Positions 15,664 through 44,860 of a stretch of DNA of 64,000 bases are shown here, piece by piece. The position numbers and the translations under genes are program-made. The first letter of the stretch is position 1. Each line of letters starts with the position of its first letter. Origin of the DNA: a bacterium (lineage in GTDB: Bacteria; Patescibacteriota; Saccharimonadia; Saccharimonadales; UBA4665); assembly GCA_027448765.1 (NCBI GenBank), contig DAIDMV010000002.1, positions 366 through 64,365 on the forward strand, read 5' to 3'. The notes under the pieces were generated by a model that did no database searches, had not been told where the DNA came from, and saw nothing but the letters and a program-made list of their open reading frames with translations.

Positions 15664-15750
15664 GCCGCGGTGGTGGAATTGGTAGACACGCTGGACTCAA
15701 AATCCTGTGAGATTTATCTCGTGACGGTTCAAGTCCGTCTCGCGGCACCA
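15664..15750 (+). tRNA. tRNA-Leu (anticodon CAA), type II with long variable arm, CCA encoded
   Basis: Hand-folded. Acceptor GCCGCGG/TCGCGGC, anticodon loop CUCAAAA, variable arm GAGAU-UU-AUCUC, T arm GACGG-TTCAAGT-CCGTC, then ACCA. Confidence 0.9.
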
Positions 15751-19741: not shown

Positions 19742-19829
19742 TGGCGGAGAGAGAGGGATTCGAACCCTCGAGAGTGTTAACTCAACACGCTTTCCATGCG
19801 TGCGCCATAGGCCACTAGGCGACCTCTCC
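19742..19829 (-). tRNA. tRNA-Ser (anticodon GGA), type II, CCA encoded
   Basis: The reverse complement folds by hand. Acceptor GGAGAGG/TCTCTCC, anticodon stem CACGC/GCGTG with loop AUGGAAA, long variable arm, T arm GAGGG-TTCGAAT-CCCTC, then GCCA. Confidence 0.9.
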
Positions 19830-39933: not shown

Positions 39934-42813
39934 TTATTTTTTGAGTTGTAATTGACAGTCATAATCATCAAACTTAATATCAACGGTTAAATCTGGCTGA
40001 TCAATCGTTTGGTTTAGTTTGGTTGTCAGAGTTTCTTCCATGATTAAGTTTTTTTGATGTTCAGTCGTCTGTTGGATAATTTGGTGATTTGACGTAATGA
40101 TTAACTGAATACGATCATCTACCTGATAATTAGCTTGTTTACGAGCACTTTGAATGTGACGAATTAGTTCCCTGGCTAAGCCTTCTTCTATTAATTGATC
40201 ATTGAGCTTAATATCTAGATCAATCTCATTACCCCATTTTACTTCTTTGACATTGAGTTCATCGGCGATGAGACTTTTATAATAATCAGGTAATTTGGGT
40301 ACGGTAAAACTAGCTAATGGCTGACGTACTTTAATTTTTTGGCTAGCTCGAAGAGCTAAACCTTGATTAATATAGTCCCTAGCTTGAGTCATATTATCTA
40401 GTAAGGTTTGGTCAATTTTTTGAGTTGATGGCCAGTCACTGAGATGGACAGATGTTGGTAATGAAGTTTTGTGAGTTAGTTGTCGCCATATATGGTCGCT
40501 TAAAAAAGGTGAAAACGGAGCTAGTAATTGACAGATAGTGATCAAACTATAGTAAAGAGTTTCGTAAGCTTCGGTTTTGTCTAGGTTGTTGTCACTTTTC
40601 CAGAACCTTCTTCTGGAACGACGAATATACCAATTGCTCAGATCGTCAAGCAGATCAGTGATTTGCTCTGATGCTTTATCTATTCGATAGTTATCTAAAT
40701 GAGTGGTTATTTTTTTAATAACTTGATTAAGCCTGGCTATAATCCATTGATCTAATAAATTTTGACTTTTAGGAACCTGACCAGGATGTTGAGGTGTAAA
40801 ATGATCGACATCAGCGTAGAGTTGATAAAAATTAAAACTGTTATTCAGGGTCATAAAAACTTTTCGTTGAATGTCTCGAAGATGATTAGAAATAAACCTA
40901 ACGTCTTCTCCGTGAACAATTGGTGAGCTAGCCATAAAAAACCTTAGAGTATCTACGCCAAAATTATCAAAAGTTTCATCCATAGGAGCATAGTTCTTTT
41001 TTCTTTTAGATAGTTTTTGACCATCGGCTGCTACTACCCAACCACTACTAATAACATTTTTAAAGGCTGGTTGATCAAATAAACTGACAGCCAAAACATG
41101 AAGAGTATAAAACCAGCCTCTAGTTTGATCAATAGCTTCAGCGATAAAATCAGCTGGAAAAACTTTTTGCCAGTCAATATCTTGGTTAAAAGGATAATGA
41201 TCTTGACCGTAAGGCATCGAACCTGACTCAAACCAACAATCAAAAACTTCTGGAATTCGTCTAGCGATTTTACCTGAGTCGGTTTTAATTTCAACTTGAT
41301 CAATATAGGGTCGATGTAGATCGGTTATTTTGCTAGCATCAACTGCCCTTTCCTTTAGTTCTTTAAGGCTACCGATAATAACAGTTTCTTCTCCGTCGTC
41401 GGTTTGCCAGATCGGTAATGGTGAACCCCAGAATCGATTGCGAGAGATTGACCAATCGCGAGCGTTTTCGAGCCAATTACCAAAGCGACCATCTTTAATA
41501 TGATTCGGTGTCCAGTTAATTTTTTGATTATTGTCTATTAATTTTGGAACAAGATGACTAACCCTGACTAGCCAAGAATCAGTGGCGTAATAAAGTAATG
41601 GTGTATCACAACGCCAACAAAAAGGATAAGTGTGTTTAAAAGTTTCGGCGGCAAAAACATGATTCGATTTTGTTAACAGTTCAATGATTAAATTGTCGGC
41701 TGTTTTAAAGAATTTACCAGCAATATTTTCAGGTAAGCCAAGGTTAGTTTTAATTTTGCCGTATTCGTCTAGAGTAATTAGAATTGGTAATTTGAATTTT
41801 TGACCTAGTTTTAAATCATCTTCACCGAAAGCTGGTGCAACATGTAAGACACCTGAACCATCTTCAATGCTAACAAAATCAGCTGGCCAAACTTTGTATA
41901 AATTATCTTTATAGATCTCGTCTTTTATGTTGCTTAATTTGAAAAGTGGTTGATAACTAAGACCAACTAGATCTTGACCTTTGACTTGGCGAATTATTTT
42001 GTAGTTATCGCTATTAAGGCAGGCCAAACAGTTTTTAGCTAAAATTAAAGTCTCGTCTTGATGATTATCATCTTGTAGGGCGACATAGAGATAATCAGCA
42101 TCAGGATTAACCGCAATAGCACTGTTACCAGGTAAACTCCAAGGTGTAGTTGTCCAACCCAATAAATAGGCGTCTTGGTCGGTTATTTTAAATTTAACGT
42201 ATAAACTTGGATCACTAACATTGTCTTGATAACCTTGATTGAGTTCAAAATTAGATAACGGGGTTGCACAACGAGGACAATATGGTGAAGATCTAAAGTC
42301 TTTATAGACTAAACCTTTTTCAAAAATAGTTTTAAAAACCCACCAAACTGATTCGATATAGTTTTCATCCATAGTTGTGTAGGTCTGAGTGTAATCAGCC
42401 CACCGACCCAATCGAATAAAGAGAGCTTCCCAGATTTCTTTGTATTTAAAAACCGATTCTTTACATTCTTGGTTGAATTTTTCAATGCCATATTTTTCAA
42501 TGTCTTGCTTACCGCTAAAACCGTGTTCTTTTTCAATTGCATATTCGATCGGCAATCCATGTGTATCCCAGCCGACTCTTCTTTTAACTAAAAAGCCTTG
42601 CATGGTTTTATAGCGAGTTATACTGTCTTTAATGGTTGTTTGAACGACATGACCATAGTGAGGTAAGCCGTTAGCAAATGGTGGACCATCATAAAATGTA
42701 AATTCTGATCGACCCTTTCGATTATCTAGACTTTTTTGAAAAGTTTGTTCATCAGCCCAAACTTTCAGTATGTTTTCTTCAATTTCAGCTAAAAAATGTT
42801 TTTGTGTTGGCAT
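39934..42813 (-). CDS. ileS: Isoleucyl-tRNA synthetase (type-2-like motifs)
   Basis: 959 aa with GPPFANGLPHYGHV (HYGH variant of HIGH) and KLSKRKKN (KMSKR-type KMSKS). Confidence 0.95.
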   Translation of the reverse strand: MPTQKHFLAEIEENILKVWADEQTFQKSLDNRKGRSEFTFYDGPPFANGLPHYGHVVQTTIKDSITRYKTMQGFLVKRRVGWDTHGLPIEYAIEKEHGFSGKQDIEKYGIEKFNQECKESVFKYKEIWEALFIRLGRWADYTQTYTTMDENYIESVWWVFKTIFEKGLVYKDFRSSPYCPRCATPLSNFELNQGYQDNVSDPSLYVKFKITDQDAYLLGWTTTPWSLPGNSAIAVNPDADYLYVALQDDNHQDETLILAKNCLACLNSDNYKIIRQVKGQDLVGLSYQPLFKLSNIKDEIYKDNLYKVWPADFVSIEDGSGVLHVAPAFGEDDLKLGQKFKLPILITLDEYGKIKTNLGLPENIAGKFFKTADNLIIELLTKSNHVFAAETFKHTYPFCWRCDTPLLYYATDSWLVRVSHLVPKLIDNNQKINWTPNHIKDGRFGNWLENARDWSISRNRFWGSPLPIWQTDDGEETVIIGSLKELKERAVDASKITDLHRPYIDQVEIKTDSGKIARRIPEVFDCWFESGSMPYGQDHYPFNQDIDWQKVFPADFIAEAIDQTRGWFYTLHVLAVSLFDQPAFKNVISSGWVVAADGQKLSKRKKNYAPMDETFDNFGVDTLRFFMASSPIVHGEDVRFISNHLRDIQRKVFMTLNNSFNFYQLYADVDHFTPQHPGQVPKSQNLLDQWIIARLNQVIKKITTHLDNYRIDKASEQITDLLDDLSNWYIRRSRRRFWKSDNNLDKTEAYETLYYSLITICQLLAPFSPFLSDHIWRQLTHKTSLPTSVHLSDWPSTQKIDQTLLDNMTQARDYINQGLALRASQKIKVRQPLASFTVPKLPDYYKSLIADELNVKEVKWGNEIDLDIKLNDQLIEEGLARELIRHIQSARKQANYQVDDRIQLIITSNHQIIQQTTEHQKNLIMEETLTTKLNQTIDQPDLTVDIKFDDYDCQLQLKK

Positions 42814-43012
42814 AGAACAATCTCCTTATAAGTTATTTTTCGGATCCAGATCAACTGGAGGTACCATCCGAATTCTGTTTTTATGTAAAACAGCCCTTAA
42901 TTGGAGGTTGTAACGGACCTAAATCGCCATAGTTCTAATGAGAAATAAAAAATATTTCCGTTCTTCTAGGAGCTAACGGTTGATAGCCGCTATGATTATT
43001 TATCACGCTTCA
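42814..43012 (-). promoter_or_regulatory. Candidate T-box leader RNA (Ile specifier) of ileS
   Basis: On the minus strand, a hairpin UAGCGG-CUAUCAA-CCGUUA (42992-42974) presents AUC followed by A. A stem III-like hairpin is CUGUUUU-ACAUA-AAAACAG (42893-42875). A T-box-like sequence is AAUUCGGAUGGUACCUCC (42874-42857). The helix UUCGGA/UCCGAA plus UCCAG/CUGGA carries a 7-nt bulge UGGUACC (42872-42839). No U-tract follows. Confidence 0.6.
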
Positions 43013-43018
43013 TTGTTT

Positions 43019-43047
43019 ATTTTAACTTTTAGAATTCGTTAAGTCAA
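43019..43047 (-). promoter_or_regulatory. Sigma-70-type promoter of the ileS leader
   Basis: Minus strand TTGACT, a 17-nt spacer, then TAAAAT. Confidence 0.6.
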
Positions 43048-43132
43048 TTATGTGTAGAGGTTCATATAATGAGATGAGCGTCACTTGCTTGTCTTATAAG
43101 CTAGTTTTAAATTTATTTGAGTCTTAAGTAAT

Positions 43133-44860
43133 TTAACGTTTGTTTGAAACATTTTTTGTTTTAGTCGGACTAATTTTATTCATAATCGGTAATCCGAGCA
43201 TTTTAAAAGCTTTCTCCATAATTAAAATATAGGCTTCCAATATGGTCAATCTAAAGTTTTGATTTGGGCTATCGAGAATTTGATCATTTTCGTAGAATTG
43301 ATTAAATAGTTGGCTGAGTTCATATAAATAATTACAGATAAGGTTTGGTTTAAGTTGATGGGTACTTTGCAGGACTAAATTAGGATAGTCTAAAAATTTT
43401 AGAATTAGTCGTTTTTCGAATTGATCAAGTTGACTAGTTATTTGATCTTGGTGTTTTTGAGCTTTTTGCAAAATGGATTTAGCTCTGACTAAAGAATATT
43501 GTAGATAAACTCCAGTGTTACCTTTTAACTTAATTGATTCTTGAGGATCGAAAATCAAATCTGGTCCAATTTGTTGTTTTAAGAAACTATATTTAATAGC
43601 GCTTAAAACCAAATCAAAATCGGGCTTAGTTTGACTTACCTGCTGAGTAGTTCGTTGAACTAGATCAATTAAATCATAGGCCTGAATAAAATTACCCTTT
43701 CGACTACTCATTTTAATGCCGCCAACTAATTTAACATTACCGTGGGTAAGATGAATGGTTTTTTGGGATAATTCTGGTTTAATTTGTTCCATTGCTTTTA
43801 AGATAACTTTCATATATTCTTGAATGTCGTTACCGGTGATAATAATCGATTGGTCAAAATGATAGTCTTGCCACTTTAATAAATTAAGACCAATATCTTT
43901 GGTTTCGTAAGTTGGTAAACCTTGTTGATTGATAAAGACTCGACTGTGTAGGCCGTATTTTTCACCAGGAAAAATAACAGCTCCTTGACTGGTTTCAAAG
44001 TGACCTTTTTGAAGTTGTTCTTGAACAGTTTTAAGACCAATACTAAATGTCTGGCTTTCTGGATAATACTTATCAAATTTAACGTTGATGGTTTGATAGA
44101 ATTGATCAAAATAATCATAACTCCATTGTCGACAAGTCCAATAAATTTGAGCTAAATTAGATTGATGATCCTGTTCGGCTTGAATTTGATAAATCTTTTG
44201 ATTGATAAGTTTAATTTCTTCTGCCACCGATTGCTCTTGTTCATAAACTGTATTACCTTCGATATAACACTGTACCAACCATTCAACTCGTTGATTATTG
44301 GGCACGGTGTTTAATTTATCCGGAAATTCGCCGCCCAAACTTTTAATAATGCCCCAGATTGATTTGGCAACATGGAGCCCAACATCACCGCCAAAATTGA
44401 CGCGATAAACTTGACCGCCAGCTTGTTCGATAATGTTAGAGATAGCATCTCCGATGATACTGGTGTAAAGATGGCCAACGTGCAAGACTTTAAATGGATT
44501 CGGGTCAGAAAATTCGGTTACAATTTTTTGATTTTTATATAATTCAGTTTGTCCAAAATGATTTTGATTGATAGTTTGCCTTAATTCATCAATGATAGTT
44601 TGATCAGCTAGATAAATGTTAATAAAACCAGGTGGTTTAGTTTCAATCTTTTGAAATGAAAATTGATCTTGTAGTTGATGACTAATTGTTTCAGCAATTT
44701 GAAGAGGATTTTGTTTTAAAGTTTTAGCTAGTTGCAAAGCAATGTTGGTAGAATAATCACCAAATTTTTCATCAGGTTTAGTGATGATCGGGTCAGTTTC
44801 TAAATGATAATTTTCAAGAATAATTTTTTGCAAATAAACTTTAATTTGGTCTTCAGTCAT
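43133..44860 (-). CDS. argS: Arginyl-tRNA synthetase
   Basis: 575 aa with PNPFKVLHVGHL (HIGH) and KMSSRKGN (KMSKS-like). Confidence 0.95.
   Translation of the reverse strand: MTEDQIKVYLQKIILENYHLETDPIITKPDEKFGDYSTNIALQLAKTLKQNPLQIAETISHQLQDQFSFQKIETKPPGFINIYLADQTIIDELRQTINQNHFGQTELYKNQKIVTEFSDPNPFKVLHVGHLYTSIIGDAISNIIEQAGGQVYRVNFGGDVGLHVAKSIWGIIKSLGGEFPDKLNTVPNNQRVEWLVQCYIEGNTVYEQEQSVAEEIKLINQKIYQIQAEQDHQSNLAQIYWTCRQWSYDYFDQFYQTINVKFDKYYPESQTFSIGLKTVQEQLQKGHFETSQGAVIFPGEKYGLHSRVFINQQGLPTYETKDIGLNLLKWQDYHFDQSIIITGNDIQEYMKVILKAMEQIKPELSQKTIHLTHGNVKLVGGIKMSSRKGNFIQAYDLIDLVQRTTQQVSQTKPDFDLVLSAIKYSFLKQQIGPDLIFDPQESIKLKGNTGVYLQYSLVRAKSILQKAQKHQDQITSQLDQFEKRLILKFLDYPNLVLQSTHQLKPNLICNYLYELSQLFNQFYENDQILDSPNQNFRLTILEAYILIMEKAFKMLGLPIMNKISPTKTKNVSNKR

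Follow-up and report, generated by a model that had tools for sequence, protein, structure and literature searches.

Sequence analysis identifies an isoleucine T-box riboswitch upstream of ileS in Saccharibacteria with a putative linker-based Shine-Dalgarno sequestrator

The ileS locus and its leader

This study concerns the leader of ileS, the gene for isoleucyl-tRNA synthetase (IleRS), in a stretch of 64,000 nucleotides (the window) from a genome of the order Saccharimonadales (Saccharibacteria; Patescibacteria, or candidate phyla radiation, CPR). The source genome comprises 745 kb in 97 contigs with a completeness of ~93%, and the window is its contig C2. A preliminary description made from the sequence alone had read the ileS leader (43047-42814, minus strand) as a candidate T-box riboswitch. 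Our sequence comparisons indicate that it is a genuine T-box riboswitch. They further suggest that its off state, in the genus-level clade of this genome, is a helix between the linker upstream of Stem III and the ribosome-binding site (RBS) region, hiding the Shine-Dalgarno (SD) sequence.

The ileS product is a class I synthetase with tRNA-synt_1, Anticodon_1 and C-terminal DUF5915 domains, which identify it as an IleRS; its nearest named relatives are isoleucine-tRNA ligases from metagenome-assembled genomes of Candidatus Saccharimonadales and Saccharibacteria. All elements of the leader are listed in Table 1. The promoter, the specifier hairpin, the Stem III-like hairpin and the two-part helix with its bulge were present as the preliminary description had proposed them. 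Promoter-grade matches are no rarer in shuffled sequences, where the mean is 2.9 per region, and the promoter hexamers are kept in the closest relative (L023/L002). In the Stem I loop the specifier codon is followed by a purine, A. The internal loop of Stem II carries the S-turn-like motifs AGAAGAA and UUAGAAC, and the CCGUUA motif is present alongside AGAAGAA and (A)NUAGAAC. Downstream of the F-box the linker holds the putative 3’ strand of pseudoknot IIB (ACCU), a putative anti-SD element and a purine string. The conserved purine string of the T-box discriminator has the form 5’-RRRxG-Stem III-AA-3’ (PMC7583486), and the window fits it with AAGGG, the 7-bp Stem III and AA. The T-box sequence AAUUCGGAUGGUACCUCC follows directly 3’ of the Stem III hairpin.

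The leader had been called minimal. This holds for Stem I, which is a 6-bp hairpin with no distal platform, as the preliminary description had noted. It does not hold for the remainder, because Stem II, Stem IIA/B and the purine string are all present; Stem II, the IIA/F-box region and the purine string had gone unrecognized. The absence of a terminator was likewise noted correctly: within 42600-43300 we found no intrinsic-terminator-like site.

Table 1. Coordinates of the leader elements and of other features in the window
Feature	Position	Strand	Remarks
ileS	39934..42813	(-)	959-aa isoleucyl-tRNA synthetase; start ATG 42813-42811
Proposed sequestrator 3’ strand ACUUAUAAGGAGAUUGUU	42816..42833	(-)	contains SD GGAG (42825-42822)
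Discriminator helix	42839..42872	(-)	A1 UUCGGA/UCCGAA; A2 UCCAG/CUGGA, loop UUGAU
T-box bulge UGGUACC	42866-42860	(-)	7 nt, between A1 and A2
Stem III CUGUUUU-ACAUA-AAAACAG + AA	42873..42893	(-)	perfect 7-bp hairpin 42893-42875
IIA/B tail and linker UUACAACCUCCAAUUAAGGG	42894..42913	(-)	proposed 5’ strand of SD sequestrator
Purine string AAGGG	42898-42894	(-)	in linker
Putative anti-SD CAACCUCC	42910-42903	(-)	in linker
Stem IIA region and F-box CGAUUUAGGUCCGUUAC	42910..42926	(-)	IIA degenerate in window
IIA loop AGGU	42920-42917	(-)	proposed 5’ strand of pseudoknot IIB
Stem II	42927..42970	(-)	lower helix CCUAG/CUA(U)GG, internal loop, upper hairpin
Ultrashort Stem I UAGCGG[CUAUCAA]CCGUUA	42974..42992	(-)	6 bp (one G-U), 7-nt specifier loop
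Ile codon AUC	42984-42982	(-)	in Stem I loop
5’ extension: UGAAGCG, then small hairpin UGAU-AAAUA-AUCA	42993..43012	(-)	precedes Stem I
Sigma-70-like promoter TTGACT-17-TAAAAT	43019..43047	(-)	10/12 consensus positions; transcription start inferred
argS	43133-44860	(-)	ends 86 nt upstream of the proposed ileS promoter
tRNA-Leu(CAA)	15664-15750	(+)	
tRNA-Ser(GGA)	19742-19829	(-)	

The 5’ extension is shared by the window with L023, L240 and L241 only, and resembles a partial duplication of the 5’ strand of Stem I (AAGCG ... UAGCGG). argS and ileS are neighbours on the same strand, and the T-box promoter lies inside the 319-nt intergenic gap between them; upstream of argS no T-box was detected. 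Downstream of ileS follow genes for a GT2 glycosyltransferase and a photolyase.

Identification and conservation of the T-box

At gathering thresholds Rfam reported only the two tRNAs and no T-box in the whole window. With E-value reporting the T-box family RF00230 gave the match that the preliminary description had proposed to look for: an end-to-end alignment over 42838-43022 with 40.1 bits (E = 1.5e-7 for a 501-nt region, E = 5.5e-8 genome-wide), which remains below the Rfam gathering score of 93. The ileS leader is the sole T-box match in the genome. The score is low because Stem I is deleted in the alignment, 87 model positions being reduced to 2 nt, and because the specifier hairpin is wrongly set onto the F-box hairpin of the model. 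Sub-threshold RF00230 matches were also found in 10 of 60 relatives, mostly upstream of ileS. Two further sub-threshold matches in relatives, L018 (G032:C11:15648-15823) and L022 (G039:C1:83685-83880), have long Stem I regions and precede genes other than ileS; some Saccharibacteria thus carry more than one T-box type, while the genome of the window has only the one at ileS.

Eleven related leaders follow one shared plan. It begins with a short hairpin with the loop xxAUCRx, followed by Stem II (AGC..GAGAAGAA and A(N)UAGAAC on either side of a variable hairpin, with an internal loop), by CGGG..CCCGUUAUAGC (IIA and F-box), by AAUNAAGNG and finally by Stem III, AA and the T-box helix. From these 11 leaders we built a covariance model, R1, with 159 positions and 23 pairs, which scores 126.9 bits on the window. 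At the level of the order R1 matched 334 of 401 genomes, or 272 of 323 if only those of high quality are counted; the family gave matches in 88 of 121 genomes and the genus in 5 of 8. Metagenome contigs were also screened with the exact 16-mer TCGGATGGTACCTCCA; this returned at least 120 matching stretches, none of the 80 loci listed matched R1, and the hits were discarded as chance matches.

In an alignment of 98 leaders, 97.4% of the cells at paired positions hold standard pairs, compared to 32-51% when the partners are slid, and compensatory double changes occur in 20 of the 23 modelled pairs; these figures are biased towards the structure by fitting of the alignment to R1. Given the slid controls and the number of pair types we regard the helices, as deduced from these sequences, as secure. 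In Stem I each of the four modelled pairs covaries, with 100% pairing. The four pairs of the lower Stem II helix reach 96.9%, with compensatory changes in every pair, and A1 is 99% paired with five of six pairs covarying. The basal pairs of Stem III covary as well. Conservation of the tRNA-contacting elements in orthologous leaders, to which the preliminary description had looked for confirmation, is extensive: the AUC specifier in the loop, the purine string AAG(U/C/A/G)G ... AA and the AA 3’ of Stem III were each found in 98 of 98 leaders, and the bulge UGGUACC in 86. For the pseudoknot, mutual information on the 98-row alignment was uninformative (gaps). The IIB pairing AGGU:ACCU was deduced instead from individual variants, namely the register-consistent pairs GAC:GUC, GGC:GCC, GACU:AGUC, AUCC:GGAU and UAGU:ACUA in relatives.

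Across a sample of the phylum, R1 matched 120 of 401 Patescibacteria genomes (~30%). Twenty matches outside the order were inspected; they include leaders with AUC that precede IleRS genes and leaders with GUC that precede ValRS genes. Such agreement between specifier and gene provides independent support for the T-box reading. GUC valS leaders with a short Stem I loop and AUC ileS leaders were seen in many CPR lineages other than Saccharibacteria (L287-L306), and most leaders in other Patescibacteria carry U-run terminators. In several leaders (L017/L026, L028, L030, L040, L054, L081, L094) the first open reading frame after the Ile T-box and terminator is not ileS; these reading frames begin, for example, with MAKGIVYIMTTAVSG..., MYDEYLDFAKQLAYKAG... 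or MAQKVLQKAKQSKKDEF..., which suggests either genes inserted between leader and ileS or an operon under T-box control.

The cognate tRNA

The genome contains a single tRNA-Ile. Its anticodon is GAU and its discriminator base is A, followed by an encoded CCA (3’ end GCCC-A-CCA), so that it fits both the AUC specifier and the UGGU of the bulge (UGGU:ACCA). The preliminary description had predicted discriminator A from UGGU, and had named the GAU anticodon as the one to be expected; both are found. Two relatives, G481 (L258; leader L070) and G483 (L261; leader L101), have a UGGC bulge and yet a tRNA-Ile(GAU) with discriminator A, the result being a C-A mismatch where bulge and discriminator normally covary. 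There is therefore no covariation in trans at this position. In five further genomes with bulge variants a BLAST search for tRNA-Ile(GAU) found none; the gene probably lies in unassembled rRNA operons in these genomes.

A chance resemblance to a T-box in an A+U-rich intergenic region could be argued from the Rfam score below the gathering threshold. The genome-wide E-value, the occurrence of the element in 334 of 401 genomes, covariation in six helices and the agreement of specifier, gene and tRNA speak against it, and we consider this possibility effectively refuted. The assignment of a T-box to ileS made in the preliminary description is borne out by the IleRS domains, the AUC and tRNA matches and the compensatory changes in the 98 leaders.

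Off states in related leaders

Among 97 distinct leaders, 81 have a U-run 11-24 nt past A1. In these leaders the segment just 5’ of the U-run is complementary to the loop and 3’ strand of Stem III, with duplex energies of -8 to -22 kcal/mol; one example is the pairing of AAUCACUUCUUUUGG with CUAAAAGAAGUGAUU-UUUUU. In the canonical arrangement the terminator takes its 5’ strand from the 3’ strands of A1/A2 (PMC7583486). This wiring is clear in few leaders only, e.g. L024. As the terminator strand is taken from the loop and 3’ strand of Stem III, the terminators displace Stem III and enclose an intact A1/A2 helix. We found no paper describing such Stem III-derived enclosing terminators in our literature searches. 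In L114 and L115 almost nothing aligns as Stem III (CCAAA and CCA, respectively), a U-run is present and the A1/A2 segment is the partner of the terminator; these leaders may have reverted to the canonical wiring.

A putative sequestrator formed by the linker

No such U-run is present in the window or the rest of its genus-level clade, and their Stem III hairpins are short. We collected this terminator-less clade from genomes and metagenome contigs; it comprises about ten related, non-independent leaders in group A (window, L023, L240, L241), group B (L004, L005, L246) and group C (L016, L243/L057, L242). In the minimum free energy fold of the window the stretch between F-box and Stem III pairs with the ribosome-binding region (ACAA.CUCC...UAAG with CUUA...GGAG.UUGU), and Stem III and A1/A2 form branches inside this helix. 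The duplex between the 20-nt linker and the downstream region has an energy of -11.5 kcal/mol in the window, which was reached by a fraction of 0.003 of shuffled sequences. The corresponding values are -11.5 kcal/mol (0.007) for L023, -13.1 kcal/mol (0) for L240, -14.8 kcal/mol (0) for L241 and -9.3 to -11.3 kcal/mol (0.05-0.08) for L004, L005 and L246. According to the partition function the SD is paired with the linker with a probability of 0.99-1.0 in groups A and B (7 of 10 leaders; window 1.0). In group C the same linker instead covers the spacer between SD and start codon as well as the start codon itself, with a compensatory change from CCAU:AUGG (L016) to CCAC:GUGG (L243). The expected number of linker-RBS pairs is 10.9 in the window compared to a median of 1.8 over 87 leaders, and six of the top ten leaders in this ranking are terminator-less. 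When groups A and B were aligned by MAFFT without fitting, pairing of the helix came to 83%; slid controls gave 26-55%.

The off state, which the preliminary description had left without a structure, is in our modelling most likely this helix of IIA/B tail and linker with the RBS region. Its 5’ strand includes the RRR of the purine string, UAAG (42899-42896) pairing with CUUA, and also ACCU, which is able to pair with the IIA-loop AGGU as IIB. The helix is compatible with A1/A2 and excludes both the IIB 3’ strand and the RRR purines. It covers the SD and ends 5 nt 5’ of the AUG, the position expected for translational control. When only the discriminator was folded without the linker, ~7 kcal/mol were lost and the SD was partly open. 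In a fold of the full leader with the linker blocked, the SD paired spuriously with the 5’ extension; we attach little weight to it, tertiary structure being outside the model.

The preliminary description had instead considered the CCUCC of the T-box itself as the pairing partner of the SD. An anti-SD of this kind, consisting of the bulge ACC and the 5’ strand of A2, would make a genuine Ile T-box in which sequestration competes directly with A2 and the bulge. ACCUCCA is invariant in 10 of 10 clade leaders, and CCUCC can form 4 bp with GGAG and even 6 bp with GGAGGU in L241; in L016, moreover, CUCCAUUAAU matches AUUAAU(A)GGAG with a duplex energy of -10.8 kcal/mol (p = 0.03). In the window, however, the pairing amounts to 4 bp only. 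The ensemble probability of such pairing is 0.00-0.02, because the stable A1/A2 hairpin would have to open first. Complementarity of the A1/A2 segment to the RBS region does not exceed shuffles in 8 of the 10 leaders (p = 0.03 for L016 and 0.05 for L241), and the identical CCUCC is shared by terminator-type relatives and hence no peculiarity of the terminator-less clade. We therefore regard this off state as improbable. Complementarity between Stem III and the RBS region did not beat shuffles in any of the 10 clade leaders.

Transcription attenuation, with the long-range helix acting as a terminator that has no canonical U-tract or with factor-dependent termination, appears very unlikely to us. 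The topology does resemble that of the relatives, an upstream strand pairing across an intact A1/A2, and the U-rich UUGUUCUAU directly follows the helix. Intrinsic termination is nevertheless made unlikely by the lack of any terminator-like site in the region searched, the nearest run of at least 4 U lying 42 nt past A1 and inside the coding region. A search of the genome (93% complete) for a Rho RNA-binding domain gave no match, which makes factor-dependent termination unlikely as well. The location of the helix over the SD and close to the AUG also speaks against attenuation.

Several observations weigh against a tRNA-responsive linker-RBS helix. The duplex energy is non-significant or marginal in L016, L243 and L242, and a few terminator-type leaders also score high for linker-RBS pairing. 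Covariation of the sequestrator is weak, with a single double change (CG to UA), and no covariation measure exceeded the column-shuffle control in the MAFFT alignment of groups A and B. The case for the sequestrator would accordingly be one of conserved complementarity and energetics from about ten related sequences, not of statistical covariation. Since the helix spares A1/A2, coupling to the 3’ end of the tRNA would rest wholly on competition with the purine string and the pseudoknot. Finally, the basal pair of A2 next to the bulge (42859/42845) is U-A and not the G-U wobble to which the main role in sterically sensing the aminoacyl group has been ascribed (PMC7583486). This pair varies freely among the 97 distinct leaders (GU 37, UA 23, GC 16, AU 14).

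Some of these points would also fit a genuine sensor that has lost its expression platform or acts by another route (constitutive expression, RNA stability or processing), with the linker-RBS complementarity being incidental in an A+U-rich leader. The missing terminator, the weak covariation, the weak pairing in group C and the chance pairing in some terminator-type leaders are in line with such a loss. AUC-A, the F-box, RRRxG, AA and UGGUACC are, on the other hand, all kept although the IleRS proteins are only 68-77% identical, which argues for selection on a working switch. In addition, the complementarity beats shuffles in the four closest leaders (window, L023, L240, L241), and the 3’ partner has been re-invented, as SD or as spacer and start codon, always against the same linker. 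We rate a lost or different platform as unlikely.

Proposed mechanism

Weighing these alternatives, we hold with somewhat better than even confidence that the leader is an Ile T-box whose off state is the linker-RBS helix and whose output in this genus-level clade is translational. The anticodon of uncharged tRNA-Ile(GAU) would be read by AUC in the terminal loop of the ultrashort Stem I, assisted by Stem II and the IIA/B pseudoknot, and UGGU in the T-box bulge would recognize the free ACCA terminus of this tRNA. The regulated step would be initiation of translation and not termination of transcription. In the absence of uncharged tRNA, CUUA...GGAG.UUGU would be bound by the IIA/B tail and linker (CAACCUCC...UUAAG, RRR included), and the resulting helix would enclose Stem III and the intact A1/A2 hairpin and hide the SD. 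Binding of uncharged tRNA-Ile would keep the linker strand engaged in the pseudoknot and the docked purine string, leaving the SD free and allowing ileS to be translated.

The identity of the linker-RBS helix as the off state, and its opposition by tRNA-dependent docking of the linker, we infer from folding models and from work on other T-boxes. The RRRxG purine string docks only on the heteroduplex of uncharged tRNA and T-box (PMC7583486). In the ileS T-box of Mycobacterium tuberculosis, for which the literature uses the term "Stem IIA/B-linker pseudoknot", uncharged tRNA goes with a docked linker; a charged mimic makes the linker flexible and lets Stem III move away, so that linker docking and the position of Stem III report charging (PMC12647780).

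For Saccharibacteria as a whole we tentatively suggest, at slightly less than even confidence, a distinct wiring class of T-boxes. The off-state helix would be built from the discriminator scaffold and not from the antiterminator strand: from Stem III in most lineages, giving an enclosing terminator, and from the purine-string linker and IIB tail in the genus of the window, giving an SD sequestrator.

Comparison with known T-box systems

Translational ileS T-boxes with an ultrashort Stem I were reportedly described by Sherwood et al. in 2015 for M. tuberculosis, M. smegmatis and Nocardia farcinica. The likeness to actinobacterial ileS T-boxes pointed out in the preliminary description is apt. 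In both cases ileS is the regulated gene, a very short Stem I without a distal platform presents AUC in its terminal loop, and Stem II, the IIA/B-linker pseudoknot, the purine string, Stem III and A1/bulge/A2 are present. Neither has a terminator, the SD being masked in the off state (predicted in the window). In the annotation of the T-box database TBDB the actinobacterial specifier loop is the hairpin loop of Stem I, too; this likeness is one of architecture and was drawn from descriptions. Structural and single-molecule work is available for the actinobacterial elements (PMC12647780, PMC11297988, PMC7583486). Apart from the lineage, Saccharibacteria in the case of the window, the difference lies in the switch. 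The actinobacterial sequestrator forms at the expense of the antisequestrator in a large-scale AntiS/Sequestrator rearrangement (PMC12647780), whereas in the window the proposed anti-SD is part of the IIA/B tail and linker, on the 5’ side of Stem III, and its pairing would not disturb A1/A2.

With canonical T-boxes (RF00230; Bacillus subtilis tyrS and glyQS) the window shares the UGGNACC bulge, the F-box, RRRxG-Stem III-AA, the S-turn motifs of Stem II, the purine after the specifier and the matches of specifier with anticodon and of bulge with discriminator. Unlike these it lacks a long Stem I with its K-turn, specifier internal loop, distal T-loop motif and the distal platform that contacts the tRNA elbow. 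No terminator is formed from the 3’ strands of A1/A2, for which the window offers no such complementarity, and the basal pair of A2 is U-A where canonical elements have G-U.

A further comparison is with the terminators of the sister Saccharimonadales. These have the same sensor core and gene, likewise take the 5’ strand of the off state from upstream of the T-box sequence, and close their helix around an intact A1/A2. In the sister leaders the 5’ strand is the loop and 3’ strand of Stem III and a U-run follows, leading to transcription termination. In the window, by contrast, the linker preceding Stem III would supply the 5’ strand and the ribosome-binding region the 3’ strand.

Novelty and biological meaning

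According to TBDB, T-boxes occur mainly in Firmicutes and Actinobacteria, with some in Chloroflexi and Deinococcus-Thermus. Searches of the full text of the papers available found none on T-boxes in Saccharibacteria, Patescibacteria or CPR, though a database may already list them. The leader belongs to a known kind of element in a lineage where T-boxes appear to be undescribed, and the variant of its expression platform appears to be new. About 83% of the genomes in the order have an Ile T-box, and standard annotation misses these T-boxes because their scores fall below the Rfam cut-off.

In the M. tuberculosis ileS T-box, single-molecule work found that docking of the linker and stacking of Stem III report tRNA charging (PMC12647780). 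If our reading is correct, expression in Saccharibacteria would be read directly from this charging-dependent docking, and natural variants that use linker and Stem III as switching strands would provide an independent evolutionary test of the docking model. The window would then represent the same sensor rewired from transcriptional to translational output with its topology kept, and would offer a compact design for engineered tRNA-responsive switches. For the organisms themselves, the sequences suggest that genomes of less than 1 Mb with few regulators retain an RNA-based feedback loop on an aminoacyl-tRNA synthetase.

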